From the NCBI GenBank assembly GCA_965279035.1, contig OZ257142.1:1856001-1920000 (forward strand): a stretch of DNA of 64,000 bases. Reading direction: 5' to 3'. The DNA comes from Bacteroidia bacterium (GTDB taxonomy: Bacteria > Bacteroidota > Bacteroidia > M30B66). Each line of letters opens with the position of its first letter. Position 1 is the stretch's first letter. Under the pieces are notes generated by a model. That model worked only from the letters and a program-made list of their open reading frames with translations. It made no database searches and was not told where the DNA came from. The position numbers and the translations under genes were made by a program. Positions 14,678-52,899 of the stretch are shown here, in pieces.

Positions 14678-16018
14678 TTAATTCTCCTTCATAGGAAGTA
14701 TCCAATCGGGTGTATGCCAAGGAGAATAGGTAATGTTGGCTAAATTGGTTTTGGGATCGACAAAAGCTTGAGGTTTTCTTCCGTTCATTCCTACTAAAAT
14801 ATCAGCAGTTATAATTGGTTCGTAATTTAAATACCGGCGTAAATCCTTTTTGAGAAACATGCTGAATTTATATATCATATCGGCATTCTGCCCCATCATA
14901 TTGATTTGCATCGTATTAATCATGCGACCGATATTGATTTCTTGTGGAGGATCCTGTTCTAGTTTACGTGCATAAAATTTAACACTCACCTCTTTCGTGT
15001 ACGATTTCATCCGCCAGCCAAAAAAGTTTGCTTGCCCATTCCAATCCACGTTTTTTGAAACTAACAAATACCGAAAAGGAAGAAGCAATTGAATTAAAAT
15101 AAATCCGCAAATTAAATTTCGAACAAGTGGTTTTATTGGGAAAAGAATCGTTTCCTCTGCCGATTTTTTTAACTGAGTAAGTTGAATTCCCATGTCCTCT
15201 AATCCGATCCTGCTCAATAATTTTCGCAACTTATCGGGTGGAGCAAAAAGCAAATTGGCGGCAGTCATTGCTAAAGGAAAAACTCCAATCGTTCCACCTT
15301 CACCTATGTTGAACATGTAATGATTGGTAACATGGAAAATAATGGTAAGTATTGTCGCGATAAGAAAGCTCTTACGATTCCAAAGTAAAAAGCCAATCAC
15401 TAAGTCGAAAATCAATCCTCCGTAAGTTAAGTAATAAACGATCACATCATTTTGGAAGATTGGAATTGTTGTATTCATGTACAACAACGATCGTGGAGGT
15501 TGTTGAAGAAAAAGCCAGTCGTGGTTGAGTTTGACAATTCCTCCAAAAAAATAAACGAGGACAACGAGAAACTGAAATAAAAATAATTGCCAGTATGGAA
15601 TGACTTCTTTACCAGTACTATCGCGCTTAGGAGTAAAAAAGAGAAAGCATGAAGTAAGCATGAGGAAGAAGTAGAAGTGATTATTGAAATAGGCTTCTTC
15701 CAGAAACGTGAGGTAGGCAAAGGAAAGAACGAAGATGATAACACCAATTCGCATTGTTTTGCGAAAGATGAGGAGAGCTGGTCCAATGAATGTGCAATAA
15801 AGAATGAACTTCATTCCACCAGCAGGAAGCGGTTTTATGAAAGGGAGATAATCGAATGTGAAGAGAAAGCGAGGAGCAAGAATTCCTGCTTCAATAAAAT
15901 GAGCCGAAACATACACGTAAAATTGGAGCAGTAAAGCCAAAGCAAAAGCTACTCGAAACAAGTTCAGCGGTAATGCATCAACAGGTTGAAACAAACGCTG
16001 CGTGAAACGATTCATCAT
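14678..16018 (-). CDS. HTTM-domain / vitamin K-dependent gamma-carboxylase-like membrane protein
   Basis: FRVAF, YFNNHFY, YFFGGIVKLNHDWL, FHVTN, IGVFP, QLLLPFR, FGWRMK, NGRKPQ motifs; multiple TM helices. Confidence 0.85.
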   Translation of the reverse strand: MMNRFTQRLFQPVDALPLNLFRVAFALALLLQFYVYVSAHFIEAGILAPRFLFTFDYLPFIKPLPAGGMKFILYCTFIGPALLIFRKTMRIGVIIFVLSFAYLTFLEEAYFNNHFYFFLMLTSCFLFFTPKRDSTGKEVIPYWQLFLFQFLVVLVYFFGGIVKLNHDWLFLQQPPRSLLYMNTTIPIFQNDVIVYYLTYGGLIFDLVIGFLLWNRKSFLIATILTIIFHVTNHYMFNIGEGGTIGVFPLAMTAANLLFAPPDKLRKLLSRIGLEDMGIQLTQLKKSAEETILFPIKPLVRNLICGFILIQLLLPFRYLLVSKNVDWNGQANFFGWRMKSYTKEVSVKFYARKLEQDPPQEINIGRMINTMQINMMGQNADMIYKFSMFLKKDLRRYLNYEPIITADILVGMNGRKPQAFVDPKTNLANITYSPWHTPDWILPMKEN

Positions 16019-35351: not shown

Positions 35352-37511
35352 TCATTGCGCCTTAATAAAACGCGCATTCATATTGCCTGAAGCGCTTCGA
35401 ATGCTTAAGATAAATGATCCTGTTGGAAGGTTTGAAGTATCAATTGTCCAACTCTTTCCTGTCATGATGGTTTTGGTAGAAGTTTCAACCAATCGACCTT
35501 GAAGATCAAACACTTGAACCAAGCATTGTCCATGAATTGCTTCTCCAGTTTTTACAATGTTTAGCTTTTCGTTTGCTGGATTGGGATATACCGAAAGTCC
35601 ATTTTCGAAATCCATTCCGTTTGTTAATCCAAGTGGAGGAATGCTGTCGGAGTTCGGAGCACCTGGTGTTGGATAAAACAACAATTTCCAATTATCAGCA
35701 CCATCTAAATAGCGTCCAAATGTTTTTCCTTCACTCATTGCAGGATATTGCGCTCCATCAATGAGTGTTTCTCCATCAGGAGCAAAAATTCCAACAAAAC
35801 CTCCAGTTTCGGATAAAGTAAAATTCAAATGCAGAGGTCCTTGAACTGTATTTTGATCAGCCCACAAAATCTTAAATGAACCAGGCTCCATCGTCATTTG
35901 AGCCGTAATTTGAGGAAACTGAAACTTGGTTGGATTGCTAATTAAATCTGTGATATAATATCCAGAAAGGTTGACTGTTTGAGTATCTGCATTGTAAATC
36001 TCTATCCAATCGTCCAATTGTCCATTCGGATCGGGGTAATTTGTATTAAATGCATTGAGCTCATTAAGGTAAATCAAAGGAGGAACGTAGCTTGGAATAT
36101 TGTCATTGTCTTTAATCACAATAACAACAGTACTTGTATCTCCAATTTGCAATCCGTTTGACACTTGAATTATCGTAAATGTCACATATTCGTCGGGTTC
36201 AATTTGAGTATCGTTATACGGTGTTACGAGAAAGTCGAGTAGGGGATTTCCAGCTTCTGTTTGTAGTAATAATTGACCATTACTAACAGCTGGTGTTGCG
36301 AAATAATCGTTAAATACACCGGCTCCATTGTTTGCTCCAATAAAAATGAAATAAGATGATGATGGAGTTGGACTGATATTCATTGAAACAGGAACACCAG
36401 CTTGACCTTCGGTGATAGTTAATGTATCTGTCGAAAAATTGATTCTCGAAAAGTTCTGATCAGTACTGATTAATGTTACAGCAATGGCATCTTCGGTTCC
36501 TACGGTTAATCCTCCCGATAAAGCACCAATGACGAAAGTTACGGTTTCATTCGTTTCGGGTAAACCATCTGCCAAGGCTTGAAAAGTAAACGAAGCTGTG
36601 GTTGCGTTTGCTGGGATATCGATGGTTATTGTTCCTGAAATATTGGGTGGATTAGTATTGTAATCACTTGCTGTTATACCAGGAAATTCGAGCACATTGA
36701 GAACCACACTTTGAGGTGAAATTTGAGGTGAACTTATGTCGAGTGTGATGGTTGCTAGTGATCCTCCTTCGATAACACTGGTGCTCGTTTGAGCAAATTC
36801 GATGCTTGAGGCAAATGGTTGAGATGTACTTGAATTCCAGTTTGGCCAAGAACTAACCTGAGCTGGTTGTCCATTATCGAGAAACCAATAATTGATGTTG
36901 TAAATAATGGAAAGCATTTCAGGACCTGTCACATTCAAAGGCGAAATAGATAAATATCCATTATCGATATTGATGGTTGTTATATCCATGAATGCCAATG
37001 CGGTTTGTCCATTTACTAATGGAGCAGGTAAACAGGTACGAAATTCAAAATAGGGAATAGAGTCGCAAGTTGGACGCCATGTATTATTGCTTATTCCGGC
37101 AATGAAAGATGGTTGAGTTGATATTCCAGTATAAGCTAATATTTGTTCTCCTTGTCCCAGCGAATACCAAATTCTACCAGTTGCTGTTCCAGGACCAGTA
37201 ACAGTCATCCCACTTCCATTATCTTGAAGTTGAAAAATAGTTCCAACGGGTAATGCTGAATCAGGACTAGTCCAAACAACTGTTTGTTCGTTGCTGAGCA
37301 AATGAGCGCCTGTCCATTTATTATCAGTGAAACTGATTTGAGTTGCAGGAGGAAGAACTTCGGTAGTTACTAGTGCAAATGCCATTTGAGCATCACCTTG
37401 ATAACCAATAAATGCAACAGCTCCCGGAGAAAGTGTTTGAGCTTTCATTGAAACTCCCAACATGAAGCAATAGAAAACGATGAGCGTAGTAATACGATTT
37501 TTCATGCGCAT
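35352..37511 (-). CDS. T9SS cargo paralog 1: FTDN domain + 2 Calx-beta-like + lamin tail domain + CTD
   Basis: GAVAFIG..ISFTDNKW; YLNELNAFN..DDWIEIYN..LHLNFTLS..TPGAPN LTD; VYPNPA CTD; -7 TACATTTG at 37531-38. Confidence 0.85.
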   Translation of the reverse strand: MRMKNRITTLIVFYCFMLGVSMKAQTLSPGAVAFIGYQGDAQMAFALVTTEVLPPATQISFTDNKWTGAHLLSNEQTVVWTSPDSALPVGTIFQLQDNGSGMTVTGPGTATGRIWYSLGQGEQILAYTGISTQPSFIAGISNNTWRPTCDSIPYFEFRTCLPAPLVNGQTALAFMDITTINIDNGYLSISPLNVTGPEMLSIIYNINYWFLDNGQPAQVSSWPNWNSSTSQPFASSIEFAQTSTSVIEGGSLATITLDISSPQISPQSVVLNVLEFPGITASDYNTNPPNISGTITIDIPANATTASFTFQALADGLPETNETVTFVIGALSGGLTVGTEDAIAVTLISTDQNFSRINFSTDTLTITEGQAGVPVSMNISPTPSSSYFIFIGANNGAGVFNDYFATPAVSNGQLLLQTEAGNPLLDFLVTPYNDTQIEPDEYVTFTIIQVSNGLQIGDTSTVVIVIKDNDNIPSYVPPLIYLNELNAFNTNYPDPNGQLDDWIEIYNADTQTVNLSGYYITDLISNPTKFQFPQITAQMTMEPGSFKILWADQNTVQGPLHLNFTLSETGGFVGIFAPDGETLIDGAQYPAMSEGKTFGRYLDGADNWKLLFYPTPGAPNSDSIPPLGLTNGMDFENGLSVYPNPANEKLNIVKTGEAIHGQCLVQVFDLQGRLVETSTKTIMTGKSWTIDTSNLPTGSFILSIRSASGNMNARFIKAQ

Positions 37512-37588
37512 GAAATTCTGTTTCTAAAAACAAATGTACGTCAAAAAGCCTGTAGGGTTGCTTTTCAATTCATTAGGATGGATTCCAT

Positions 37589-37623
37589 AAAAAAACGGCC
37601 TGCTCAAATCGAACAGACCGTTT
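37589..37623 (-). terminator. Intrinsic terminator
   Basis: Minus strand AAACGGTCTGTTC-gattt-GAGCAGGCCGTTTTTTT. Confidence 0.85.
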
Positions 37624-37641
37624 CAAAGTTCATTGAAGAAC

Positions 37642-39768
37642 TTAATGTTTTACAATCAACTTTTTATAAGTACGATCTTTTCCAGAACCAACACGAACAA
37701 GGTAAACTCCCGATGCAAAATTGCTTGTATTGATTTGCAATTGTGTTGAGTTTTGAGGAATAAGTTGATTTAGAATTTGACGACCATTTATATCAAACAC
37801 ATGAATTTGGGAATTTGTAAGTGAGCTTGATAATGAAACTTGAACAAATTCATTTGCTGGATTGGGAAAAAGATTGAATTCAAAAGCAGAAACCGTTTTG
37901 ATTCCAGATGTTGCATTGGAAGCTCCCGGTGTAGTAAAACCGTCTTCGAAAACAGTTAATTCACCATCTACTTCGCTATCATATCCATACGATTGATTTG
38001 GACCTAATTGTTCATAGGTTAAAGAATCAATCAAATCTCCATTTCCAGCATACAATCCAACATATTCTCCTGCTGGAGATAAGGTGAAATTCGTATGCAG
38101 TGGACCTTGAGCAATCGTATTATCAGCCCAAACCAATTTGAAACCACCAGCATTTATTACTGTACTTGCTGATCCTGTAGGAAACTGATATTTATTGGTT
38201 ACAGTTATATCATCAGTAATAAACAATCCTGCTAAATCGGCTGGTGTAGAAGCAGCGTTATAAATCTCAATCCAGTCATCAAATTCGCCATTCTCATCGG
38301 CTATTGTGCCTGTATTGGAAGCCATCACTTCGTTGATGTATAAATCACTTACAACAGGTGCAGCATCATTATCTAATACTGTAATGGTTTGAGTTGCATT
38401 TAAACCAGCTTGAAGATTACTGCTAAAGGATGTCAAACTCAAATTCAAACTCTCTGGAGATTCAATGTCTGTATCATCATTCACATGAAATGTAAAACTA
38501 TAGGTAGTAATTCCGGAAGCCAATGAAACAGCAATGACTCCTGATGCTGCAGCCGGATTTGTAGTATAGTCAGCTGCACTTATTCCATTTTCTGTTAATT
38601 GAATGGAGAATGTCTGTGAACTTGAAATAGCTGGTAAAATTTCCAATTGAACAGTAATGTCTGATTGTCCTTCGGTTATTGTTTGTGTAGTTGAAGTAAA
38701 ACTCACGAAAGAAACTCCGGCAGGTTCAGTGATTTCGAAATTCAAAGTATTACCCGATCCGATAGTAATTCCTGCTGTTGAAGATGAAATCGTTAAGGTT
38801 CCAGATTCGGTTCCTTCGCTTAATCCATCTGCAATAGCAGCTAAGTTTAATGAAATAAAAGTGGAGCCGTTCGGAATTGGAATCGTAACCGAATTAGCAC
38901 TAAATGCTGGTGTAGACTGTAAATCAGCAGAACCTACAATTCCGCTTAAAGTAAGTGTAACGGTTTGTGAACCAAAACTCGCAGGGCTAATGCTAAACGT
39001 TACATTTTGTGAGGATCCTCCTTCGGAGAGACTTAAAAATCCACTTTGGAAATTAATTTCAGAAGGTGCTGGAGTGTCGAATGTAAATGTCCATGCAGGC
39101 CACATTTCAAAACCACTTAGTGTTGGATCATTATCATATTGCCAATTTTCTGGATCCATAATAACCGCTAAAATGTCGGCAACAGGTCCGCTTAGGTCGG
39201 GAGGAAAAAGGTATCCATTATCAGTACCAGTTGAATCTCCAGTGATGGCTAATGCATTGATTCCTTCTTCTAATGGTGCAGGTAAGCAAGTGAAATTAGT
39301 ATTTCCAACACCTGTTGTATTACAAACAGGAAGAAAAATATTGACACTGATAGCAGCCACAAAACTCGGACTTGCACTCGATCCTGTATAAGCTAAAATC
39401 TGATCACCACCAGTAGCCAAACCATTCAATTCGCCAGTTGCAGTTCCCGGACCGGTTACTAGTTCAATATTATGTCCTGCACCAGGAATGGTATCTTCCC
39501 GAAAAATAATGGTAGTACCGATTGGAACACCTCCTACTGGTGCAGTCCAAACAACTGTTTGCTCATTTGTAAATAAAGCAGTTCCACTCCAGCCATTATC
39601 AGTAAAACTGATAGTTGTTCCAGCTGCAATGTCTTGCAAAGTCACAATGGCAAATCCATCAGGGGCATCACATTGCATTGATAGAAATGCAATTCCCCCA
39701 GGTTGAACTTGTGAAAATGCCGTTAATGAAAAGAGGCAAATAATGAAAGAAGATAAAATTGATCTCAT
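37642..39768 (-). CDS. T9SS cargo paralog 2: FTDN domain + 2 Calx-beta-like + lamin tail domain + CTD
   Basis: Start MRSIL (39768) downstream of -7 TACATTTG (39784-91); ISFTDNGW; INEVMASN..DDWIEIYN..HTNFTLS..TPGASN; LFPNPA CTD. Confidence 0.85.
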   Translation of the reverse strand: MRSILSSFIICLFSLTAFSQVQPGGIAFLSMQCDAPDGFAIVTLQDIAAGTTISFTDNGWSGTALFTNEQTVVWTAPVGGVPIGTTIIFREDTIPGAGHNIELVTGPGTATGELNGLATGGDQILAYTGSSASPSFVAAISVNIFLPVCNTTGVGNTNFTCLPAPLEEGINALAITGDSTGTDNGYLFPPDLSGPVADILAVIMDPENWQYDNDPTLSGFEMWPAWTFTFDTPAPSEINFQSGFLSLSEGGSSQNVTFSISPASFGSQTVTLTLSGIVGSADLQSTPAFSANSVTIPIPNGSTFISLNLAAIADGLSEGTESGTLTISSSTAGITIGSGNTLNFEITEPAGVSFVSFTSTTQTITEGQSDITVQLEILPAISSSQTFSIQLTENGISAADYTTNPAAASGVIAVSLASGITTYSFTFHVNDDTDIESPESLNLSLTSFSSNLQAGLNATQTITVLDNDAAPVVSDLYINEVMASNTGTIADENGEFDDWIEIYNAASTPADLAGLFITDDITVTNKYQFPTGSASTVINAGGFKLVWADNTIAQGPLHTNFTLSPAGEYVGLYAGNGDLIDSLTYEQLGPNQSYGYDSEVDGELTVFEDGFTTPGASNATSGIKTVSAFEFNLFPNPANEFVQVSLSSSLTNSQIHVFDINGRQILNQLIPQNSTQLQINTSNFASGVYLVRVGSGKDRTYKKLIVKH

Positions 39769-39824
39769 GAATTGAAATTTGTACAAATGTAATGGATTAA
39801 TAAAAACGGGAATCCATTCTCTTT

Positions 39825-41835: not shown

Positions 41836-41863
41836 AAAAAAAATCCCGCCGACGGGCAGGATT
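41836..41863 (-). terminator. Intrinsic terminator of the small SD/sORF unit
   Basis: AATCCTGCC-cgtc-GGCGGGATT-TTTTTT on minus strand. Confidence 0.85.
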
Positions 41864-41895
41864 AAAACCGTGTTGGTCTGTCGACCGGTTTTGCA

Positions 41896-41943
41896 TTACA
41901 GACCGGAGCAAAGGATGTGCGCCGAAGTTCTATAATCAGACAT
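41896..41943 (-). CDS. Candidate 15-aa small ORF MSDYRTSAHILCSGL with a perfect extended Shine-Dalgarno
   Basis: Minus strand GAAAGGAGGTGT-GC-ATG; GGAGG 5 nt before ATG; TAA at 41898-41896; terminator ~30 nt downstream. Confidence 0.45.
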   Translation of the reverse strand: MSDYRTSAHILCSGL

Positions 41944-42012
41944 GCACACCTCCTTTCGATTCGTTAGTATAGTAGAATGACAAATTAAATGAAAGATTGT
42001 TTGGTGATGGAT

Positions 42013-42049
42013 AAAAAAAAAGAGGCTGCTCTTGTGGAGCAACCTCTTT
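42013..42049 (-). terminator. Intrinsic terminator of the 2822-aa gene
   Basis: Minus strand AAAGAGGTTGCTC-cacaa-GAGCAGCCTCTTTTTTTTT. Confidence 0.88.
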
Positions 42050-42066
42050 CAATAAGAAGTGATATG

Positions 42067-45000
42067 TTAGTGAGCAACTACCACACGAATAGTTCTTGTG
42101 GTTTTGTTATCACGAATTACTGCTAGGTATGTTCCTGCTTTCAAGTCGGAAGTGCTGATTGTTTCTACCGAATTTGTAAGCGTTTTTCTAAGAACCACTT
42201 TGCCAGTGATGTCGGTTAATTCTAACACCGCTTGACGTGAATCAGAACGAAGAATTTTTACCAATTCGTTGGCTGGATTCGGGAAGGCGATGAGTTGATT
42301 TCCGTCCGTTACATTAGCAATTCCTGTTACATCATCTGTAATAGCAATTTCGTAGCTCGAAGTAGAAGTACAACCACCATTGCTGATCGAAAGCGTTACG
42401 GTGTAGATACCTGTTTGCATGTAAGCGTGCGATACATTTGCACCAGCTACCAGGCTTGTTTGATCACCGAAATTCCACGTGTATTCAGCACCAGCAATTT
42501 GAACTGTGCTAAATTCTACGATGGCTTTATCAAGGGAGATGCTCGAAGCAGAACTTGTGATACCGGCATTTTCGAAAGCTTCAAATCCTTGAATATCGAT
42601 CAAAGTAGAGTTGAATTCAGTTCCATCATACGATGTTTCCATTGAGTACGATTGTGGAGCCAAGCCAGTGAAGATGTATTCTGCCATCACTGAATCTTTC
42701 GCCATGACTACTTCGCCTGCGGTGTTTTTGATACGAGCTTGCATTGGGTAGTTCTGGTTAGGATTGCTTAGAATCACTTTTCCTGTGTTTTCGTTAGTAC
42801 AAGAACCAGTTGAAGAATAAGCGAATGGAGCCATGAAATGCAGACGGAAACGTGTTCCAACAAATGCAGGATCGTTGGTAAATGAATAGTTCGAAGAAGC
42901 ATTCATGTTGTGGAATTCACCTGTTTTACGGTCTTCCAAGAACACACGAACTGTTGGATCGAAGTTATCAAATAGGTTGAGGTCGAACGAATAGGTTCCG
43001 GCAGTAGCCATCACCACACCTAAATCAATTACACGAGCAGTGTTAAGAACTGGTAAATACTGAGTAGTAAATTGATCATCACCAAGCATAGTGTATAATT
43101 CAAGTACTTCACTTGAAGGCATTCTTGGAGAATCGAATCCGAAATCAACGCCATCTGTTCCTGTTTCACCAAAACCAACAACGGCATCAAAACTAATTTG
43201 ATTTGGATTGGTTAAACGTAAACGTAGGATTGAATATGGACTATCGTTATCGAGGAACTGAGTTGAGTTACCCGGATAATTTGGAACACGTTGATTGGAG
43301 TTGAAACTAATAGATCCAGCACCGCTTACTTGAGCTAAGAAACCTTGACCAGCACCAATTTCTGCTGAGTTAAATCCTGCAACGATATTACCACTAAGAA
43401 CTCCTAATCCTGACATAACAACATACGAGCTGGAGTTATATGGAATATTTCCTGAGAATGACCATAAGTAAACAGAACCAAGGTTCGCGTTTGTAGCTTT
43501 TAATGAACTGTATGATAATGCAGATGGATAAGGATTTCCAAGCAAGTTAAAGGTGTTTGAACCATTCACTGTAACAGGAATATTTACTGTTCCTTCATTC
43601 GAAGTACCAACAAATTTTACGTTTCCGTTACCTGCATACGTTTGAATATATCCTCTTCCTGGAGTCATTACAGTAGGACTAGTGATTGCAGAACCCCAAG
43701 CTAATTGTGGATTTGTTCCGCTACCAGCAATTTGATTATCATACTGATACACGTTATTTCCGTAATTAGAAGCTAAAACAGAAGTTGTTGCAGCTGTAAC
43801 AGGAGAGCTCCAGTAATTGTATCCACCGTAAAGAGATCCACTACGATTGTAGTTGATATTTCCAGTAACAGTACCACTGTAGTTTTTAGTTAAATCGGCT
43901 GTTGCAACACCGCCGCTAAGTAGTACGGAGTTGTTTTCGAAACTCATATTACCATTACTAGCTACCGATACACCAGCTCTAACAGCTACAACACCGTAGA
44001 AACGAGTGAGTGACAAAACAGCACCAGTATTCAAACCACCTTCGTTAAAGCGAAGTGTACCAGTTCCTAAGAATCGTGGAGCAGTAGTTTGCAAATACGC
44101 ATAGAAACCAGAACGATTGATATAGCTTTTGTATGTAGCACTTGCAGTCAATCTCAATTCAGCACCAGCGTTAATGGTAATGCTTGGAATGTTGTTATTT
44201 CCAATAGAATTGATGAATTCAACTCCGTGAACGTTTTGAGTTCCATTAATCACTGGGTAAACATTGCTAACCAAGGTTGGAATAATAACAGTTGAATTAA
44301 CTGATGGAGTTGTTAATGCCGAAACATCACCGCCTGACCAGTTTGCCGCATTTGTAAAGTTATTATCTGCCGCACCTGTCCAATAAAGACCGTTCGTAAC
44401 AGCCATTTTGATAAACTGAGCAGGAGCTGCATTTCCAGCAGTAGTTCTTGCCAAACGGATATATACAGTAGAACCTGGAGTTAAGCCAGTTGCAGCAGCG
44501 TAAGCCATGTTAGCAGCAGCACCGCCAGAGTTACAAGCAACTTGAGAAAGTCCTGTTGAACATGTAGTAGCAGTGAAAATTTGAACCAATGCACTCGTGA
44601 TGTTTAACGATACAGTTGGATCATTATGTTCTTGAGTAATGACGTGAACCTCACCATTGGCAGGAACTACAGCACGGAACCAAATATCTTTATTAATTCC
44701 AACACAAGCAGCACCTGGACTAGCCGTAGCACCTGTTAAAGAACGAAGAATGTAGTTTGGAGTGCTTGTTACATTAATTAAACCTGCAGGAAGATTTGCC
44801 AAACAGATATCATTCGTAATGGCCGGGTCAACGGTAACTAAAATTGCAGTTGGACTTGTATTACAAGCAATTAAGGTATTGGTTGCTGTTACATTGTATG
44901 TCACCGTAGAGAATGGTGCTGCATACACTGTTAAGATTGGAGTTCCTAAAACATATGGAATTGTAAGAGCAGCATCTGTATATAAATCTGATGCAGGACT

Positions 45001-48000
45001 CCAAGTATAATTTGTATTAGCAAGTGGAGCAGTAACTTCCAACATTCTTGATGGATTTGAAGCATCAATGGTAGTTGAAGTAACATTCGTTACTGGTAAA
45101 GCGGCAGAGGCTGCTACCAAGTTATTGAATGAATTTACAGCTGTTGCTGATACAGCATTTAATGCAGTATTTACGGAAGTACTTAAAGAAATCCAAGGTG
45201 AGCTACCATTGTATAAAGCAAGACCAGCTTCAGGTAAGCTGTTCAATTCGCTAGTCAAGTAGTAATAATTGACAGTTGCATTCAATCCAGTATTAACTGT
45301 TGGAGTAATTGTGAACTTACGTAAAACACTCGAAGAAGAACATCCGATGTCTTGGCTATTTCCAGTATTACGGAGAACAACTGTAGAACCTGGTTGAGCA
45401 CCAGCAGCAGTAATTTCAAGACCCATTCCACCAAATTGTTGAAGGGCATTTGTTAGAACACGTGTTGTTTCAACGTTTCCAAGAACATTGTTGGCATCAG
45501 TTTCTGAAATTGTTGCTGTTGCACTCAAGATGACTTTGTTTGCACCTGTTGTAATTCCACCTAATGAACAATCTAAATTTCCTGTACCAGAAATCTTCAT
45601 ATTACCCGAAGTCAACGTAACACCATTGGAATTGCTGATTGTTACATTGTTGAATGATTCACCTGCAGCGTATGAAGTACTGAATGATTGTGCTCCAGAT
45701 GTTCCATTGAATTCGAAGGTCGAAGTTCCGGAAGCAATCATATCAATTGTGCGCGAATCTGTAAAGTCGCCAGCTATTTTGATTGTATTGCCATTCGGAG
45801 TGAATTTTCCAGTAGAAGTCCCAGCAATTGTAAAGTCACCTTTGATGATTACATTGGCACTTCCACTTGAAGGTTGAACCTGAGTTACAGTTGTTCCACT
45901 AGTTTGAATGCTTAGGTTATTGATAGACGCTTTGATAACAGAAGCTGATCCACCTGAACCATCCTGACGAATATTCGCTGTACCAGTAGCTCCATTTAAA
46001 ATGATAGAACCAGTAAAAGAATAGCTCGCAGTATTTCCAGCACACTCTAAATCTCCACCTATAGTGATTGTGTTTGCATTATCGGCAAATGAAGATGCTC
46101 CAGCATTGGTGTTCAATTTAATATCATCGCTCAATACCAAGTTTGTTGTTGCAGCTAATGATAATGAACCCGTTTTTAAATCGCTACCAGAAGAAATTAA
46201 TGTACCGCTAGTATTGGCAACGTTCATCAACAAACGTCCTGCATTGATTGCATTTCCATTTCCAACCAATTGCTGTGTATTAGAGCCATATGCTTGAAGA
46301 TTCACATACGTATTGTAATTGGTAGAGTAGGTAATGGTTCCGTTTACAGTGATGTCTTTTTTGAAGAATACAACACTGAAAGTTGTAGAAGCATTTACAC
46401 TTGCATTGGTAAATGTGTAATCACCTTCAACGCGATATCCACCAATAATACGTTTAACACCAGCACCAGTAAAGGTTAAGTTACCGTATTGATTGTTTGT
46501 AGATGTTGGAACGGCGATGTCTTGATTGGATAATGAACCGTATACAACCGTAGTGTTTGGCTCAATACCATTCAATGTTGGAACAGTGGCATTGTTTAAG
46601 TTCAATGTTGCTGTACCTTCCAAGCTATCAACTACTCCAACAAAAGAGAATGCATCAGGAATAGTTACAGTACAATTAGTACGGATTAACACTTTTGAAT
46701 TTGATCCTGAAACAGTCCAGTTTGCACCAAGAGTTGCTGTAGTTAAACGGTGTTGAACGATGAACGTTTGGTTTGATGCAGTGAAAGAAGTTGGGTTTGC
46801 ACCAGTTCCATCATTATTAGTCCACCATGAACCTAATTGGTCTAAGTTTCCAGTTGAATCAGAATAAAAAATAGATGGTGTGAAGTTGATTGGAGTAAAA
46901 GTAACATCATCAACTCCTAAACCATCACGAGTTCCAAATGTACCAGTATTATTATGTGTCCAACGAACCCAAGTAGAAGCTCCATTCGCAACAGATGCAG
47001 GTAAAAATACTGTATCCATAATAGCTTGACGATAAGCACCAGCATTTCCATTACGAGGATTATCTGTGGATGTTGTTCCGTAATCAGGTGAGTAAAAATT
47101 TAGAATACTTGAAGATCCCCAAGTTCCAGTTGCTAAGCTTGTTGCTGTAGAACTGTATTCGAATTTCAACTTATCACGTGCAGGAGCACCGCCATTCGAT
47201 GCATTTCCTGTAACACCTCTTCTCCATTGTTCTCCGTTGTAATTCACAATAAGAGCGTTAAAAGTTGTTCCAGTAGAATTTGTGATTTTGAAACCTACTT
47301 TTACATCAGCCAAACCACTAGTAATGGATGAACCTAAGGCACGATCAGATGTTGCTCCAGTTCCAAAACTGTAAGTGTCTCCAGTCGATAAATTACCATC
47401 ACCAGCAGTTAAAATCAAGTTTTGGTTGGTTCCTGTTTCAAGGTAATAAGCACCTGTACTTACTTCGGTACTTGTTCCAGAGACAATTATGTTATTGAAA
47501 TCAGTTGTAGCACTTGGAGTACCAATGACTGTTACAATTACAGCATCATCATTATCAGTGATGGTTACGTTTTGAGTGATTGTAGTTCCAAGATATAAAC
47601 CTGCCGAAGGATTGGAAATGTTGATTGTTGCAGTTTCGGTTCCCTCATTCAAGTTGTCATTTACCACTGTAAATGTGCTTGTTCCAGTTGTTGCTCCAGA
47701 AAGAATTTTAATCTGAATTCCAGCTAAAGTACCATCTCCATCAACCAAGGTATAATCACCTGAAGAAATGGAAGTACCTGTTACCGTTAAATCAACCGTT
47801 TCGTTGCTTGTTAAAGTAGAATTTGAAGTTGCAGTAACTGTTATGGCTGTTGTTCCAACTTCTGTTCCTGCACTTGCACTAACACTTACGTTAACAGTTG
47901 GAAGCAAAGCTCCATTTAAGATTACATATTGAGTGTATCCGGATGTTGTTGTAAGAGTAATGAGTTTGTTATTGTATGAACCAGCAGCAAGATTTGCTTT

Positions 48001-50535
48001 CAAACGAACATACACCGTTGTAAGAGCAACTGAACCTGCTGTTGGATTTAAGTTCAATGAATTGACAAACGTTCCACCTGAAGTTAGGCTAATTTCATAA
48101 TTAGCATCAACATTCAATGCAATTGGATTAACACCTAAGTTAGAACCACTCACTGTGAATGATTGCTCAACCGATGGACCAGTACCAGGACCAGAACCAG
48201 CATAGGTAAATCCATTTAAAATGGTAGATCCAATATTAATTTTTGGAGCGCTTGCTGAAATTGGTGCTAAGGAAATTCCTTTAACTGTGTTTGTTCCAGT
48301 TGCAGTGTATAAAGTAACGTTTGAAGGTGTGTTAACGTTAATAGTTGTATTATAACCGGCTAAGTCAGTTACTTTTATAATACTGTTTGCTGCAGTAGCA
48401 CCACCTCCTGTTGAGAAGAATATTTCAGCTCCAATTCCTAATCGCAAAGCTGTAATTCCAAAACCACCACCAGCTGCTGTATATGATCCATTCGCAGTCC
48501 AAAGACCCGCAACTAATGAATATTTTAATATTCCAGTTGCAGTTACAAAATACATCACATCGTATGTAGTTCCATTCACTCCGGATTGAATCATATAGAA
48601 ATCTATAGGAGTAATACCAGAGGAAGCGAATCCATTTAATGTTGTTGCTGTAATATCTGTTGGAGTAGCAAAACTTACAACTGTATTGGTTGCAGAATTG
48701 GCCATTGAATATACCGTCCCTCCAAAAGCTTTCGCACATCGTTTATTCGCAGCAAAGGTTGGTGTTGTAGCACCTCCATTTGAGAATAATCCTATTTGAT
48801 CAATAATATAATATGCAGAGTTATCAATAGAAGTAGCTCCACGTGTTTGGTTACCTGTTGTACCAGCGTATGTAGCTGGAAGGTTAAATACAAAATTAGA
48901 AGTCAAGGTACCTACACCACGAGGTAAAATAGTATTGATATTACCTGCTGAAGTAGTTGTATTGTGTCCAACAAAACTCAATAATGTACCATCGTTTGTA
49001 GTCGCTAAATAACCCGCCGATGTAGCACTTCCTGTAAAACGTAAAGAATTAGCACCTGAAGTTCCATTGATACTGTATGTATTAATGGCTGATTGAGCAG
49101 CAGTAGTTCTATTAATTTCAACAATAGAAGCAGTTGTATTAGAACTAGTATTATCTGCTATTTGGAATAATGCCAAATTGCTCAATGTGAAATTGATTGC
49201 GGCTGTAACTGTCCCACTTGCAGTAATCGATGAACTTGCTCCACCACCAGCAATACCAATTGTTTGACTAGAATATGTTGCTTGAGCCATTCCTGCTTTC
49301 AAACGCACATAAAAAGGAGTTGAAGCAAGAGTAGCTGATGAATAAGGTATCAAAGCAGTAGCTCCAAAGGTGATATTATCACTTGAAACTTCGAAAGCAG
49401 CTGAGCCTGTTATTGTAATATTGTTAGGCGCACCAGTTAAACTAGCACCAGTTAGATTAAGTGTTTGTGAAGTTGAAGGTCCAGACCCCAATGGATATGT
49501 AAAGCCTGTTAATGAACCAACACTCGGTGTTAAGGTAGGTGATGCAGAAGTAACGGTTCCAGTTGTTGAAACGTTTATTGTTGTTGCTCCACCACCAGCG
49601 AGTGTTACTCCTGTTACTGGTCCATAAGTAGCTGCAGCAAGTCCAGCTTTTAAACGAACATACGTTGTTGTTGATGCTAATGCTCCACCTGAATAAGCAA
49701 CAGTATATGAATTACCACCAGCAGCAGTAATTCCGTCTGAAGAAACTTCGAAATTGGTTGTTCCAGCCACTGTAATGTTTCCAGCTGCAGGACTTAAACT
49801 TGATCCAGTAAATGTATATGACTGCCATGCAGATGGACCAGCTCCTGTATAATTAAGTCCGGTAATAGCAGCAGGTTGAGATATTGTTGGACCTGTTCCA
49901 GTAAGTTTAACATCATCTATACGAATAGCTAATGTTCCAGTTTTTACAAATCGAATTTTTAATCCATTGATTTGAGCACCTGCAGGTAAGGTTAAGGATT
50001 TAGAAAGATACCATCCAACAGTAGCACCTGCAGCTTCATTAAATAAAGCTCCAGAAGTATTGGCAACAACTTGCCATGCAGCACCATCCCAATAATCGAC
50101 AGAAAAAGTTGCATGTGATGCAGCATTTTCTTTACGATAACCAAATTGTAATGTCAAACCAGTATAAATAGAAGCATTGATAGATTCTATCGAAAAACCA
50201 TAAGCACCAGAAGTGGTTGTTTCAAAAATATTTCCTCCACCGGATGCTCCTGTATAACCAGAAGAAACATTTGTTACACGGAGATCTGCTGGATTAGTTT
50301 GAGCTCCGTTAGAATAGGTGAGGTTAGCTCCAGCTCCATTGTTTTGGAAAGTTGCAGGAGCAGTACCGCCAACATAAGCAACAATAGTTGTTGTACCGGC
50401 TGGGGTTCCCATATTCTCCGTGAATATGGTTGTTTGACCGAATCCAAGATTGACTGAAATGATGATCAGCAAGGCTGCCAAAATTCCGCTTGGAAAGTGA
50501 AAAATTCGGGATCGTTTCGTAAGAGTTGATTCCAT
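42067..50535 (-). CDS. Giant (2822 aa) multi-domain T9SS surface protein: three Ig-like YVRLKA repeats, propeller-like domain, Calx-beta-like, beta-helix, PKD, type A CTD
   Basis: Signal peptide ..LGFG/QT; 3x GPS..Q......GxxL...YVRLKA; FTVVNDNLNEGTET; GDTYSFG..SDRALG..GEQWR; YTWNFGD..HAY...GIYTVTL (PKD); AFPNPA CTD. Confidence 0.88.
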   Translation of the reverse strand: MESTLTKRSRIFHFPSGILAALLIIISVNLGFGQTTIFTENMGTPAGTTTIVAYVGGTAPATFQNNGAGANLTYSNGAQTNPADLRVTNVSSGYTGASGGGNIFETTTSGAYGFSIESINASIYTGLTLQFGYRKENAASHATFSVDYWDGAAWQVVANTSGALFNEAAGATVGWYLSKSLTLPAGAQINGLKIRFVKTGTLAIRIDDVKLTGTGPTISQPAAITGLNYTGAGPSAWQSYTFTGSSLSPAAGNITVAGTTNFEVSSDGITAAGGNSYTVAYSGGALASTTTYVRLKAGLAAATYGPVTGVTLAGGGATTINVSTTGTVTSASPTLTPSVGSLTGFTYPLGSGPSTSQTLNLTGASLTGAPNNITITGSAAFEVSSDNITFGATALIPYSSATLASTPFYVRLKAGMAQATYSSQTIGIAGGGASSSITASGTVTAAINFTLSNLALFQIADNTSSNTTASIVEINRTTAAQSAINTYSINGTSGANSLRFTGSATSAGYLATTNDGTLLSFVGHNTTTSAGNINTILPRGVGTLTSNFVFNLPATYAGTTGNQTRGATSIDNSAYYIIDQIGLFSNGGATTPTFAANKRCAKAFGGTVYSMANSATNTVVSFATPTDITATTLNGFASSGITPIDFYMIQSGVNGTTYDVMYFVTATGILKYSLVAGLWTANGSYTAAGGGFGITALRLGIGAEIFFSTGGGATAANSIIKVTDLAGYNTTINVNTPSNVTLYTATGTNTVKGISLAPISASAPKINIGSTILNGFTYAGSGPGTGPSVEQSFTVSGSNLGVNPIALNVDANYEISLTSGGTFVNSLNLNPTAGSVALTTVYVRLKANLAAGSYNNKLITLTTTSGYTQYVILNGALLPTVNVSVSASAGTEVGTTAITVTATSNSTLTSNETVDLTVTGTSISSGDYTLVDGDGTLAGIQIKILSGATTGTSTFTVVNDNLNEGTETATINISNPSAGLYLGTTITQNVTITDNDDAVIVTVIGTPSATTDFNNIIVSGTSTEVSTGAYYLETGTNQNLILTAGDGNLSTGDTYSFGTGATSDRALGSSITSGLADVKVGFKITNSTGTTFNALIVNYNGEQWRRGVTGNASNGGAPARDKLKFEYSSTATSLATGTWGSSSILNFYSPDYGTTSTDNPRNGNAGAYRQAIMDTVFLPASVANGASTWVRWTHNNTGTFGTRDGLGVDDVTFTPINFTPSIFYSDSTGNLDQLGSWWTNNDGTGANPTSFTASNQTFIVQHRLTTATLGANWTVSGSNSKVLIRTNCTVTIPDAFSFVGVVDSLEGTATLNLNNATVPTLNGIEPNTTVVYGSLSNQDIAVPTSTNNQYGNLTFTGAGVKRIIGGYRVEGDYTFTNASVNASTTFSVVFFKKDITVNGTITYSTNYNTYVNLQAYGSNTQQLVGNGNAINAGRLLMNVANTSGTLISSGSDLKTGSLSLAATTNLVLSDDIKLNTNAGASSFADNANTITIGGDLECAGNTASYSFTGSIILNGATGTANIRQDGSGGSASVIKASINNLSIQTSGTTVTQVQPSSGSANVIIKGDFTIAGTSTGKFTPNGNTIKIAGDFTDSRTIDMIASGTSTFEFNGTSGAQSFSTSYAAGESFNNVTISNSNGVTLTSGNMKISGTGNLDCSLGGITTGANKVILSATATISETDANNVLGNVETTRVLTNALQQFGGMGLEITAAGAQPGSTVVLRNTGNSQDIGCSSSSVLRKFTITPTVNTGLNATVNYYYLTSELNSLPEAGLALYNGSSPWISLSTSVNTALNAVSATAVNSFNNLVAASAALPVTNVTSTTIDASNPSRMLEVTAPLANTNYTWSPASDLYTDAALTIPYVLGTPILTVYAAPFSTVTYNVTATNTLIACNTSPTAILVTVDPAITNDICLANLPAGLINVTSTPNYILRSLTGATASPGAACVGINKDIWFRAVVPANGEVHVITQEHNDPTVSLNITSALVQIFTATTCSTGLSQVACNSGGAAANMAYAAATGLTPGSTVYIRLARTTAGNAAPAQFIKMAVTNGLYWTGAADNNFTNAANWSGGDVSALTTPSVNSTVIIPTLVSNVYPVINGTQNVHGVEFINSIGNNNIPSITINAGAELRLTASATYKSYINRSGFYAYLQTTAPRFLGTGTLRFNEGGLNTGAVLSLTRFYGVVAVRAGVSVASNGNMSFENNSVLLSGGVATADLTKNYSGTVTGNINYNRSGSLYGGYNYWSSPVTAATTSVLASNYGNNVYQYDNQIAGSGTNPQLAWGSAITSPTVMTPGRGYIQTYAGNGNVKFVGTSNEGTVNIPVTVNGSNTFNLLGNPYPSALSYSSLKATNANLGSVYLWSFSGNIPYNSSSYVVMSGLGVLSGNIVAGFNSAEIGAGQGFLAQVSGAGSISFNSNQRVPNYPGNSTQFLDNDSPYSILRLRLTNPNQISFDAVVGFGETGTDGVDFGFDSPRMPSSEVLELYTMLGDDQFTTQYLPVLNTARVIDLGVVMATAGTYSFDLNLFDNFDPTVRVFLEDRKTGEFHNMNASSNYSFTNDPAFVGTRFRLHFMAPFAYSSTGSCTNENTGKVILSNPNQNYPMQARIKNTAGEVVMAKDSVMAEYIFTGLAPQSYSMETSYDGTEFNSTLIDIQGFEAFENAGITSSASSISLDKAIVEFSTVQIAGAEYTWNFGDQTSLVAGANVSHAYMQTGIYTVTLSISNGGCTSTSSYEIAITDDVTGIANVTDGNQLIAFPNPANELVKILRSDSRQAVLELTDITGKVVLRKTLTNSVETISTSDLKAGTYLAVIRDNKTTRTIRVVVAH

Positions 50536-50664
50536 TGGATGTTAGTTAGGAGTTGGTTGTTTTACAGATACAAAAAAACAACAACTGAATGAACTTACTA
50601 ACCATCCTTTGTTACTTAATCTTGGTTCAATTTTAAGTTTTCTGCACAAATTCAGCCTTAAAAA

Positions 50665-50682
50665 TTAACATCAATTTAACAT
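50665..50682. promoter_or_regulatory. 7-4-7 direct repeat TTAACAT-caat-TTAACAT (OmpR/PhoB-type box candidate)
   Basis: Perfect heptamer repeat at 11-bp period, 130 bp upstream of the giant gene start. Confidence 0.45.
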
Positions 50683-50760
50683 TAGGGATGTTGTTTTTAA
50701 AGTTTTAAAAGCAGAAAAATCTAAAATCAAATACGAAGAATAAAGTATAAGGTTATTCTT

Positions 50761-52899
50761 TTATTTCCCAACGAAAACAAACTTCTTAAATGCTGTTCCT
50801 TGCTGAGATTGAATGCGTAATTGATAGATTCCTGGGGTAAACGAATCTAAAGGAAAAGTCATTATTGAATTAGCATTTTTGAATGACATGCTTTTCACAT
50901 TTTTACCATCAATCGAAAATAGATCGATTCGAACATCCTGATTTTGGTTGGAAAATGAACGCTGACGGATGCTAATATATTCTGAAGCAGGATTTGGAAA
51001 TAGTTCAAATTGATCAAGTTCTGTGCTTACAATGGCTGATAATTCATTGGAGACGTTAGGCGTTGTCATTCCTTGATCGAACAAAATCCAAGGAGCTCCA
51101 CCATTAATTTGTCTTCCCCAGCTTTGGTCTGTAGTTAAAGCAGGTACACTCACTGAATCGATGATTTGAATGGTGCCGGCAGATTCACTCAGAATGATTT
51201 TCTCACCCGCAGCCGAAATTTTAAAGTTCGTATGCAAAGCTCCTAATTCAACCGAATCATCAGCCCAAACTAATTTATAAGAACCTGCAGGCATAATGGT
51301 TTCCAAACTTCCTGTAGGGAATTGATATTTTGACAAGTTGTTTTCATCATCGCTGATGTATTTACCAGCTAAATCAATCGAATTGAGTGAAGCATTATAT
51401 AACTCAATCCAATCGCTAAACATACCATCGGGCGATGAAATAGTTGCTGAATTGGATGACATCACTTCATTAATGAAAATGGAATTTGTTGGAGGAATCG
51501 GAGTATCGTTATCTTGAATGATGAGATCAAACGCATCTTGAAATCCTGCAATAAATCCTGCACTCGGATTTTCTATGCTCATCGTTAAGGTCTCATTGCC
51601 TTCTATGGATAAATCATCTACCGTTGAAATTGCGATGGTTGTATCTGTTAATCCAGCGGCAAATGCAATAGTAATTATTCCTCCGCTTGGACTTGGTGAA
51701 CACGAATAATCAGCAGAAGTTAATCCAGCTCCTTCGCTTAAATGAACATCAAAACTCCCACTTTGAGAAGCTGCAGGTTCTAAATGAACAATGACTGAAT
51801 AAGAATTTCCTTCGGGAATTTGCATGCTTTCAATTGAAAACTGAATTGTGGAAGCATTATTCAAATCGTTCACAATAAGTAATGTTTGAGATTCGCTTCC
51901 GATCGAAAGTCCTGCACTAATATTATTAATATTCAAGGCACCTGTTTCTTGTCCTTCAGTTATTCCATCTTCATTTGCAGCAATTTGCACAATAAAAGAA
52001 ATGGCTCCAGCTGGAATAGTCACTGGAATTGATGCCCCGCTGAAAGTTGGAGTTGATGTTAAATCGGCTGATGTCAACATTCCAGTAAGCAATAAATTAA
52101 GGGTTTGGATACTAGAAGTTGCTGGGTTGAAATTCAATTGAATTTCTTGATATGGTGCACCTTCGGTCAAGGTAATTTCACTTTGTTCTAAGGTAACTAC
52201 CGATGGAGTTTGTCCAGTAAATGTGAAATTCCAAGCTGGCCAAACTGTATTTCCTGCTATAGCAATATCAACTGATGAGGTCCAGTTTGCTGAGTTGAAG
52301 ATGGCATCGTGAATTTGAGACGCAGTACCATTGAATCCATCGAGATTGAAAAATAAATTTGGAATGATATCTCCTAAGTTGATTGGAGCTTGTGCCGATT
52401 CGCCCAATACGAGGGGAGATGGTAAGCAAGTTATATTGGTATTAGGAGTTCCGGTTACACAAATCGTTTCAAAACTGCTGTTGCTAATAGCTGCAATAAA
52501 GGATGGACTGGAATCCGCACCGGTGTATGCTAAAATTTGTTCACCGGCTGAAGATAAATTGGGTAATTCACCAACAACAGAACCTGGACCTGTGAGGAGT
52601 GAAAGTCCATTGGCAATATTATCATCGGCAATATAAACGATTGCTCCCGCTAACAATACATTCGAAGGACTTGTCCATACGAGGGTTTGTTCATTTGCCC
52701 ATAAGGCAGTTCCGTCCCAGCCATTATCAGTAAAAGAGATGGAAGTGTTAGCTGGTAAATCTTCTAAAGTCACAAATGCAAATCCATCAGGAGCTGAGTT
52801 TTGAAAACCGACAAAAGCAATTCCACCAACATTGGGCACTTGTGCAAAAAAATTGATGAATGTGATAGTTGTAAGAAAAGTAAGTAGCAGTTTTTTCAT
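50761..52899 (-). CDS. T9SS cargo paralog 3: FTDN domain + 2 Calx-beta-like + lamin tail domain + CTD
   Basis: GGIAFVGFQ..PDGFAFV..ISFTDNGW; INEVMSSN..DWIELYN..HTNFKIS; LFPNPA CTD. Confidence 0.85.
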   Translation of the reverse strand: MKKLLLTFLTTITFINFFAQVPNVGGIAFVGFQNSAPDGFAFVTLEDLPANTSISFTDNGWDGTALWANEQTLVWTSPSNVLLAGAIVYIADDNIANGLSLLTGPGSVVGELPNLSSAGEQILAYTGADSSPSFIAAISNSSFETICVTGTPNTNITCLPSPLVLGESAQAPINLGDIIPNLFFNLDGFNGTASQIHDAIFNSANWTSSVDIAIAGNTVWPAWNFTFTGQTPSVVTLEQSEITLTEGAPYQEIQLNFNPATSSIQTLNLLLTGMLTSADLTSTPTFSGASIPVTIPAGAISFIVQIAANEDGITEGQETGALNINNISAGLSIGSESQTLLIVNDLNNASTIQFSIESMQIPEGNSYSVIVHLEPAASQSGSFDVHLSEGAGLTSADYSCSPSPSGGIITIAFAAGLTDTTIAISTVDDLSIEGNETLTMSIENPSAGFIAGFQDAFDLIIQDNDTPIPPTNSIFINEVMSSNSATISSPDGMFSDWIELYNASLNSIDLAGKYISDDENNLSKYQFPTGSLETIMPAGSYKLVWADDSVELGALHTNFKISAAGEKIILSESAGTIQIIDSVSVPALTTDQSWGRQINGGAPWILFDQGMTTPNVSNELSAIVSTELDQFELFPNPASEYISIRQRSFSNQNQDVRIDLFSIDGKNVKSMSFKNANSIMTFPLDSFTPGIYQLRIQSQQGTAFKKFVFVGK

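Follow-up and report, generated by a model that had tools for sequence, protein, structure and literature searches.

Background

The closest described relative of the element considered here is the extended Shine-Dalgarno (SD) sequence of rpsU, the gene for ribosomal protein bS21. According to work on Flavobacterium johnsoniae, ribosomes of Bacteroidia bury the 3' tail of 16S rRNA, which carries the anti-SD (ASD), under bS21, bS18 and bS6, and the extended SD is described only on rpsU, with typically one such gene per genome in screens of annotated genes (PMC9976891, PMC13000457, PMC13000453). This extended SD pairs with the tail over 9-13 bp at -14 to -21 kcal/mol, values obtained with a program different from the one used below (PMC9976891), and on the Bacteroidia ribosome a 13-bp SD-ASD helix and bS21 are described as mutually exclusive (PMC13000457). 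Here we analyse a stand-alone unit of ~130 nt that consists of an extended SD, an open reading frame (ORF) of 15 codons, an internal anti-SD and an intrinsic terminator. It lies at 41966-41836 in a stretch of 64,000 nt from a Bacteroidia bacterium (GTDB lineage Bacteroidota, Bacteroidia, M30B66; assembly GCA_965279035.1, contig OZ257142.1, positions 1,856,001 to 1,920,000), hereafter the window; all coordinates are window positions, and the unit is on the minus strand throughout.

In the current view, rpsU autoregulation is the sole case of SD-dependent control in Flavobacteriales-type bacteria, and the conservation of the anti-SD is puzzling; the screens presented there covered the start regions of annotated genes (PMC9976891, PMC13000453). 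The unit would escape such screens because a 15-codon ORF on a small RNA lies outside annotated-gene starts. The second described system with a bearing on the unit is the OLE RNA of Halalkalibacterium, in which helix P6 is reported to be an SD/ASD mimic bound by bS21 (PMC12054373).

A conserved ribosome-binding site on a unit of its own

Read along the minus strand, the unit runs TAACGAATC-GAAAGGAGGTGT-GC-ATG, followed by the ORF, two hairpin regions and, at 41863-41836, a terminator made up of a 9-pair stem and a T-run. The extended SD, GAAAGGAGGTGT (41957-41946), is separated by the dinucleotide GC from the ATG at 41943, which opens a frame, read from the sequence, of 15 codons and a TAA (41943-41896; peptide MSDYRTSAHILCSGL). 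The GGAGG core is 5 nt from the AUG, the canonical spacing for SD-using bacteria, and the base at position -3 is not A. Within the ORF, the internal anti-SD GCACATCCTTT (41920-41910) pairs with AAAGGA.GGTGTGC and masks the SD in the predicted fold. An initial annotation, made from the letters of the window alone, had described the SD, the 15-codon ORF, the anti-SD, two competing pairings and the terminator, and each of these was found again where it had been placed on the minus strand. The insulation that it had proposed is also borne out: the intrinsic terminator of the upstream gene (42050-42011, minus strand; a 14-pair stem at 42050-42018 and then a T-run) insulates the unit on one side, and on the other the downstream porin has a promoter-like box of its own, TACTTTTG (41769-41762, minus strand, with the porin ATG at 41756), which is kept in front of the porin in relatives that lack the unit.

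The pairing of the SD with the 16S tail was computed with the 16S rRNA of two relatives from the same order, the genomes G019 and G021, rather than with that of the genome of the window. Both end ...GGAACACCTCCTTTCT, the 3' end that the initial annotation had assumed. The duplex comprises 12 consecutive Watson-Crick base pairs for the SD type shared by the window, G003, G004 and G019, and 13 in G021, with energies of -21.4 and -21.9 kcal/mol (ViennaRNA duplexfold), within the range that defines an extended SD (at least 9-13 consecutive pairs, at or below -14 kcal/mol). The location is different, at the start of neither rpsU nor rpsR, and the 15-codon ORF is unrelated to bS21. The identical 12-mer GAAAGGAGGTGT does precede rpsU elsewhere in the class, in genome G159, and in a 150-genome sample of Bacteroidia two rpsU genes carry the same 11-12-mer, 5 nt (G098) and 7 nt (G159) before the ATG. 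Within the order, there is no SD in front of rpsU in G001, G019 and G021 or in front of rpsR in G001, G003, G004 and G021, and, judging from these start regions, autoregulation of bS21 via an extended SD seems to be absent in this order. The start regions of the order's rpsU (loci L021, L022, L023) and rpsR (L037-L040) are A-rich and follow TAnnTTTG-type boxes. The bS21 of G019 has a tyrosine at position 54 (hand count).

In the five known copies (window, G003, G004, G019 and G021), the segment from a TAAC ~22 nt before the AUG to nucleotide 14 of the ORF is nearly identical in alignments, forming the block TAAC-NAA-NN-GAAAGGAGGTGTGCATGTCT(G/A)ATTATAG (41966-41930, approximately -22 to +14 relative to the AUG). 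The 26-mer AAGGAGGTGTGCATGTCTGATTATAG is the same to the last base in the window, G019 and G021, and one base off in G003 and G004, and yet the middle of the unit is unalignable in G021, whose helicase orthologue is 64% identical to that of the window. The SD, the spacer, the AUG and the first 14 nt are thus kept across three lineages, a conservation of the SD-ATG spacing to which the initial annotation had looked in judging its own claim. Because the conserved block spans about what would be the 30S footprint on a start site, it appears that the ribosome-binding site itself is under selection.

Frequency of SD-like motifs

The comparison set consists of 24 species genomes of one Bacteroidia order that were reached through the porin; the genome of the window is not among them, and the genome-wide SD census, like the 16S end, therefore comes from relatives. 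In the window itself, the exact 12-mer GAAAGGAGGTGT occurs once. Matches of at least 11 nt to the 16-nt complement of the tail number three, compared with 0.11 expected from shuffled sequences, and the other two, at 788-798 (plus strand; AGGAGGTGTTC, 11 nt) and 39535-39524 (minus strand; AGGAGGTGTTCC, 12 nt), lie inside long ORFs for cargo of the type IX secretion system (T9SS). The latter sits on the codons GTA GGA GGT GTT CCA for V-G-G-V-P, and Gly-Gly-Val codon bias is the likely cause of both runs, although internal SD-like sites in an SD-avoiding lineage may merit attention. When all the starts in the window were compared, no other real gene start had a comparable SD; the corresponding statement of the initial annotation holds with these two intragenic runs as its qualification.

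Strong SDs are rare in the order as well, as had been assumed: for an 8-mer followed by ATG, the count in the reversed control equals or exceeds the real one in 19 of the 24 genomes, and nine of the nine look-alike 8-mer sites inspected are coding or high-G+C sequence, none of them a unit. The exact 12-mer yields 11 matches in the 24 genomes, namely four units, four 16S genes and three sites within coding sequence, compared with seven for the reversed 12-mer (~0.3 per genome). The unit is the only rpsU-grade SD found in these genomes of the order, and it is not on rpsU. Two members, G008 and G015, show excess or unusual SD-plus-ATG counts and have high-G+C stretches with SD-led genes (L074, L075, L078), which may be foreign DNA, phage or bin contamination.

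Across the class, an 11-mer followed by 1-9 nt and ATG was found in 53 of 150 Bacteroidia genomes, with 71 matches compared with ~65 in the reversed control (hand count). Inspection of 35 of these loci identified two as rpsU and none as unit-like; a look-alike in G088 was rejected as a unit, having neither a terminator nor the ATTATAG. At four loci of this sample (L101, L104, L119 and L126), the 11-mer AAAGGAGGTGT lies a few bases before the ATG of a 20-45-codon ORF outside long frames, and these could be either chance occurrences or analogous orphan SD units.

Distribution and genomic contexts

A BLAST search with the 155-nt unit detected full-length homologues in G003 (93% identity), G004 (91%) and G019 (79%), and in G021 a 37-nt match over the SD and the start of the ORF (92%). 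The homologues are thus present in 4 of the 24 genomes of the order. A covariance model (R2) identified the same four and, in these genomes, no extra members: its next matches (E at least 0.037) are 3' ends of cold-shock-like (csp-like) genes and of other genes with similar terminators. In the near relatives G001, G002 and G005, the csp-like gene (L135, L139, L140) ends in a terminator, TCCTGCC-TCGG-CGGGA, that resembles the one of the unit. The unit of G019 itself lies ~260 nt downstream of a homologous csp-like gene, and the resemblance seems to be confined to the terminator.

Beyond the order, the 26-mer, with up to three mismatches, was detected in 2 of 400 sampled Bacteroidia genomes, both belonging to the same order, and it was not found in the ~390 sampled genomes outside the order; a search of viral contigs with the 26-mer gave 0 matches.

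The units occur in three gene contexts: in the window, G003 and G004, between a T9SS cargo gene and the porin; in G019, after the csp-like gene and convergent with a pgi-like gene; in G021, after a P-type ATPase with a CPC motif and facing a convergent bioD-like gene. The names csp, pgi, bioD and ATPase were read off ORF translations, not assigned by a family search. Because these contexts differ, the unit is a separate gene rather than a leader sequence of the porin. Porin-anchored relatives at 65% (L001, L002, L003) and 49% (L004) identity have upstream regions without the unit. For the T9SS tail domain, the best identity in near relatives is 38%, too low to settle the orthologous position.

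An independent freshwater sequencing run (X5) contains a ~90%-identical relative that aligns with 41873-42050, the upstream spacer and the first two-thirds of the unit from its 5' end, and over these 178 nt shows 6 mismatches and 3 indels. In the flanking coding pieces of this run, 47 of 454 and 24 of 192 positions are different, so that the unit is better conserved than the genes around it.

Predicted structure

The folding of a 146-nt stretch gave -43.3 kcal/mol (z = -2.9), a stability matched by 1 of 200 shuffled sequences, and for the bodies of the copies with the terminator removed, z ranges from -1.5 to -3.2. The three lineages share the same predicted layout: a 5' SD region, stem-loop 1, stem-loop 2 and the terminator. 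The minimum free energy fold of the window contains the SD:anti-SD helix and the GGUCUGU:ACAGACC helix, and the AAAACCG/CGGTTTT pairing is also present. The GGTCTGT/ACAGACC switch that had been proposed initially is accordingly present in the window but is not conserved outside the clade of the window.

Masking of the SD is predicted in all copies. The GGAGG is unpaired with a probability of 0.22 in the window and 0.04-0.24 in the five copies, that is, it is mostly paired in each. The SD:anti-SD duplex of the window has -16.6 kcal/mol, a value reached by 1.6% of shuffles; against shuffled downstream sequence, the corresponding fractions are 0.016 (window), 0.08 (G019) and 0.028 (G021). In the window clade and in G019, the masking partner is part of the loop that stem-loop 1 encloses; in G021, it is on the 3' side of stem-loop 2.

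Stem-loop 1 (41936-41895) is closed by helix b/b', in which ATTATAGA (41936-41929) pairs with TCTGTAAT (41902-41895, including the stop codon), and which encloses the anti-SD; its strands are AUUAUAGA/UCUGUAAU in the window, UUAUAGAAC/GUUCUAUAA in G019 and AUUAUAGUU/AAUUAUAAU in G021. In the models, this helix would be either an alternative to the SD:anti-SD helix or a pseudoknot with it. Forcing it costs 4.1 (window), 1.4 (G019) and 0 (G021) kcal/mol: the masked fold has an advantage of 4-5 kcal/mol over the b/b' fold in the window clade, and the two are compatible in G019 and G021. Stem-loop 2 (41892-41864) is an A-run/U-run stem around a G+C-rich hairpin, in the window AAAACC/GGTTTT closing the apical hairpin GGTC-GACA-GACC; the apical stem is GGCC/GGTC in G019 and GCACAC/GTGTGC in G021. 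The terminator (41863-41836) consists of AATCCTGCC-CGTC-GGCGGGATT (stem 41863-41842) followed by the T-run, which is on the minus strand only.

Of the eight pairs of helix b/b', one shows compensatory and two show one-sided changes, with 97.5% of the alignment cells paired, and in the terminator 3 of 9 pairs have compensatory changes across the five copies. In the alignment fitted to the model as a whole, 96% of the cells are paired (36-51% in slid controls) and 5 of 27 pairs are compensatory, a result that none of 500 shuffles equalled. The covariation analysis that had been suggested initially came out divided: the covariance model finds the four homologues again, but RNAalifold provides no covariation support.

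Proposed function

The initial annotation had offered several interpretations: a sensor or sponge for ribosomes with an exposed anti-SD, a micropeptide gene, an mRNA of the type I toxin kind and an attenuator. A sensor or sponge is compatible with everything found here, the micropeptide is weakened, and the attenuator and the toxin are disfavoured. The reading to which we tentatively give preference, possible rather than probable, is that of a small structured transcript whose working part would be a ribosome-binding site that is complete and masked by the RNA itself. Only 30S subunits whose anti-SD is free because they lack bS21 would engage it, and the transcript would be either a sensor or decoy or a mini-ORF gated by bS21. 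Transcription, 30S binding, gating by bS21 and any downstream effect are all inferred from the sequence.

The mechanism could be as follows. The unit would give rise to an independently terminated transcript of ~130 nt, in which the selected feature would be not the peptide but the ribosome-binding site, composed of the rpsU-grade SD (12-13 bp), the short spacer, the AUG and the first ~14 nt that follow. In the resting fold, the SD would be masked by the internal, copy-like anti-SD segment. If the Flavobacterium mechanism applies, normal ribosomes hide their anti-SD under bS21, bS18 and bS6, and only those 30S subunits whose tail has been liberated, presumably bS21-free or immature ones, would engage the RNA. 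Pairing with the tail, at approximately -21 kcal/mol, would be favoured over the internal mask, at -13 to -17 kcal/mol, and the RNA would refold into the form with stem-loops 1 and 2 and load the ribosome on a throw-away mini-ORF, which might be either a by-product or a device for loading and releasing ribosomes. The output could be the capture or reporting of ribosomes, as in a sensor or decoy, or a translation-dependent stabilisation of the RNA. In its strongest form, this reading would make the unit the first client of bS21-free 'specialised' ribosomes in Bacteroidia besides rpsU, a trans-encoded RNA that senses or soaks up free-tail 30S subunits via a self-masked 12-13-bp SD and a disposable mini-ORF, in a lineage with an SD-less rpsU; we regard this as rather doubtful. 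If true, regulation through the anti-SD tail would involve a second partner, and there would be a small RNA dedicated to reading out ribosome heterogeneity.

Several observations weigh against the self-masked binding site as a ribosome sensor. The SD-like motif by itself is a weak argument and is not unique, given that runs of 11-12 nt also arise by coding accident; the unit stands above chance because it is conserved, not because of the motif alone. Between the 12-bp complementarity and the AUG there are only 2 nt, compared with 5 and 7 in the rpsU genes, so that the spacing is not rpsU-like, and placing the AUG in the P site may require the last 2-3 SD-tail pairs to open. The structural support is uneven: the masking duplex of G019 (0.08) and helix b/b' of G021 (0.29) are not significant, the position of the masking partner differs among the three lineages, the pair counts come from five sequences and an alignment fitted to our own structure, and on a plain MAFFT alignment the covariation term of RNAalifold is unfavourable (+2.4). 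Among the five copies there are only three independent lineages. In the near relatives G001, G002, G005 and G006, whose helicase is 89-91% identical to that of the window, neither BLAST nor the covariance model found the unit in what are fragmented bins, and a core ribosomal role is unlikely because of this patchy distribution. The candidate promoter is convincing in G019 only, where a perfect TATTTTTG box lies 5 nt ahead of the conserved TAAC, and it is weak elsewhere: G021 has TTTATTTG, and the candidate -7 box of the window, TTAATTTG (41988-41981, minus strand), a weak assignment, has one mismatch to TAnnTTTG, which we take to be the consensus. Finally, gating by bS21 is borrowed from Flavobacterium johnsoniae, a member of another order, and would apply here by analogy.

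Alternative explanations

In one alternative, the unit would be a micropeptide gene, with a functional 15-aa product (containing His9 and a nearby Cys) whose translation the extended SD would drive or gate. This is unlikely, even though the ORF starts from the same AUG in all five copies and has 15 codons in four of them, M-S-(D/N)-Y and His9 are kept, a Cys is at position 8 or 12 (hand translation), and the position of the G021 unit after the CPC-motif P-type ATPase would, speculatively, suit a metal-binding peptide. The homologous peptides are MSNYRISAHILCTGL in G003 and G004, MSDYRTTAHNLCVVL in G019 and, in G021, one of 29 aa (hand translation), where the frame runs on, the TAA that ends the other ORFs being out of frame there (hand reading). 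All three substitutions between the window and G003 are non-synonymous (D3N, T6I, S13T); in codons 5-15, the window and G019 differ by ~3 synonymous and 8 non-synonymous base changes, a dN/dS near 1 (hand count on a very small sample), and the G021 sequence is unrelated after codon 4. With no synonymous excess in this very small sample, purifying selection on the peptide is not apparent. Codons 2-4 do not vary even at their wobble bases, a sign of selection at the level of RNA rather than protein, and the conserved CAC for His9 is also explicable by pairing with the GUG beside the SD.

Similarly improbable is a base-pairing small RNA that would dispense with translation and use its purine-rich 5' end on the 3' end of 16S or pre-16S rRNA, in maturation or quality control, or on CU-rich targets. 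The only complementarity in trans that was found is with the 16S tail, the single-stranded-looking 5' leader and the terminator stem-loop are as in many small RNAs, and anti-SD ablation is reported to disturb 16S maturation in F. johnsoniae independently of bS21 (PMC13000453). A pure seed, however, would have no need of the exact spacing or of invariance through the AUG to +14, and a second target did not emerge: matches to the antisense 18-mer in four genomes were only the units themselves and chance matches at 3 mismatches, and no excess pairing was seen between the unit and the rpsU start region (shuffle fractions 0.94 and 0.61) or between the +4 to +14 block and the body of 16S rRNA (0.16 and 0.26). 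The patchy distribution likewise argues against a role in maturation.

The internal SD:anti-SD helix could instead mimic the mRNA-16S duplex and thereby titrate or sense free bS21, in the manner of helix P6 of the OLE RNA. In the window clade, the masking strand CACATCCTTT, which pairs with the SD, shares 9 of 10 bases with CACCTCCTTT, the genuine 16S tail, the bS21-bound P6 offers a precedent, and rpsU in the order has no SD control of its own. The mimic strand, however, matches the tail at 7 of 10 bases in G019 and is displaced and degenerate in G021, there is no similarity to Rfam families or to OLE, and in Bacteroidia the extended SD-ASD helix and bS21 are reported to exclude each other (PMC13000457); we consider such a bS21-binding RNA very unlikely.

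It is just as hard to credit that the unit is a relic that does little or nothing, such as the decayed SD-led start of a foreign gene, kept by chance or through recent transfer within the order. Its presence in 4 of 24 genomes, with none found in near relatives, the likeness of the site to a textbook ribosome-binding site of SD-using phyla, and the ease with which 11-12-nt SD-like runs arise by accident in coding DNA (~0.3 per genome by chance for the 12-mer) would all fit. Recent transfer or neutral decay would be expected to produce the reverse of what is seen, an identical 26-mer in genomes with 64% helicase identity while the rest of the unit diverged, and compensatory changes accompany the preservation of the terminator and of two helices. 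The relic is further at odds with the better conservation of the unit than of its flanking genes in run X5 and with the lack of a match in the viral contigs.

Control of read-through into the downstream gene, by a leader-peptide attenuator or a thermosensor, is highly improbable. The short ORF, the competing hairpins and the terminator are what an attenuator has in structure, with GGTCTGT/ACAGACC competing with AAAACCG/CGGTTTT in the window clade, and the G019 unit follows a cold-shock-like gene; but the competing hairpins are specific to that clade, the next gene is convergent in G019 and G021 rather than a co-directional target, the porin has its own promoter box that is conserved where the unit is absent, and the ORF has no run of regulatory codons. 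A type I toxin is disfavoured by the hydrophilic peptide MSDYRTSAHILCSGL, which has no hydrophobic stretch or membrane helix, and a scan of the window sequence found no promoter-like site on the opposite strand across the unit.

Neighbouring genes

The gene upstream of the unit encodes a 2822-aa protein with a PKD domain and a C-terminal Por_Secre_tail (T9SS sorting) domain, that is, a T9SS cargo, and the downstream gene, outside the unit, is the Porin_10 gene. This porin gene is flanked by a cluster of secreted paralogues on the minus strand (35352-39786, 42067-52899 and 55388-57607), the 2822-aa protein being one of them, that carry Lamin-tail (LTD), Calx-beta or PKD domains together with Por_Secre_tail. 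Elsewhere in the window, 14678-16018 (minus strand) encodes a 446-aa protein with HTTM and vitamin-K-dependent gamma-carboxylase lumenal domains (Pfam E-values 2e-38 and 8e-32).

Comparison with known systems

A search of the whole window against Rfam 15 gave 0 matches at the gathering score, and the best sub-threshold scores, sRNA71 at 24.5 bits (threshold 50) and anti-hemB at 19.6 (49.5), are driven by the terminator. A search of the literature turned up no description of a small RNA or mini-ORF with an SD from Bacteroidia, with the SD tables of the Fredrick laboratory (Figures S7-S11), which may list such orders, falling outside the search.

Leader attenuators and small RNAs with a short ORF are exemplified by the trp, his and thr leaders, SgrS/SgrT, RNAIII/hld and SR1/SR1P. 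The unit resembles these in having a short ORF in a structured, terminated unit of ~130 nt with alternative pairings, but differs in that two of its three contexts offer no downstream gene to regulate, and in that no regulatory codons, conserved peptide or mRNA target were found. The mRNAs of type I toxins have a masked SD; common to these and the unit are the sequestration of the SD by long-range intramolecular pairing and a very short ORF, whereas the unit encodes a hydrophilic peptide without a membrane helix, is single-copy and has no evident antisense partner. With the OLE RNA (PMC12054373), the unit would share the context of a non-coding RNA, an SD-like strand paired with a copy of the 16S tail and a link to bS21 biology. 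The OLE RNA is, however, ~600 nt long, belongs to Bacillota and has protein partners of its own; the unit has no sequence or Rfam similarity to it, and the mimic is well kept only in the clade of the window.

The closest parallel is the extended SD of rpsU, which the Fredrick and Ortega laboratories described in Flavobacteriales and other Bacteroidia. As there, 12-13 pairs form with 16S nucleotides ~1532-1544 at about -21 kcal/mol, and the site is the sole one of its kind found per genome, SDs being otherwise avoided in the lineage. The differences are that the unit carries no ribosomal protein gene but a non-conserved 15-codon ORF on a putative transcript with its own terminator, and that it has a 2-nt spacer compared with 5 and 7, no A at -3 and a built-in anti-SD mask. 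On the sequence evidence, the unit is best described as an orphan extended-SD element that would function like the rpsU SD and departs from that family in its location; it is also a candidate for a new family of small RNAs. For genomes with SD-less rpsU and rpsR, it is a concrete candidate for a second partner of the hidden 16S tail, and an RNA of 130 nt provides a simple handle on whether bS21-free ribosomes have targets besides rpsU. Even as a mere lineage-restricted accessory small RNA, it would still represent a new RNA family, absent from Rfam.

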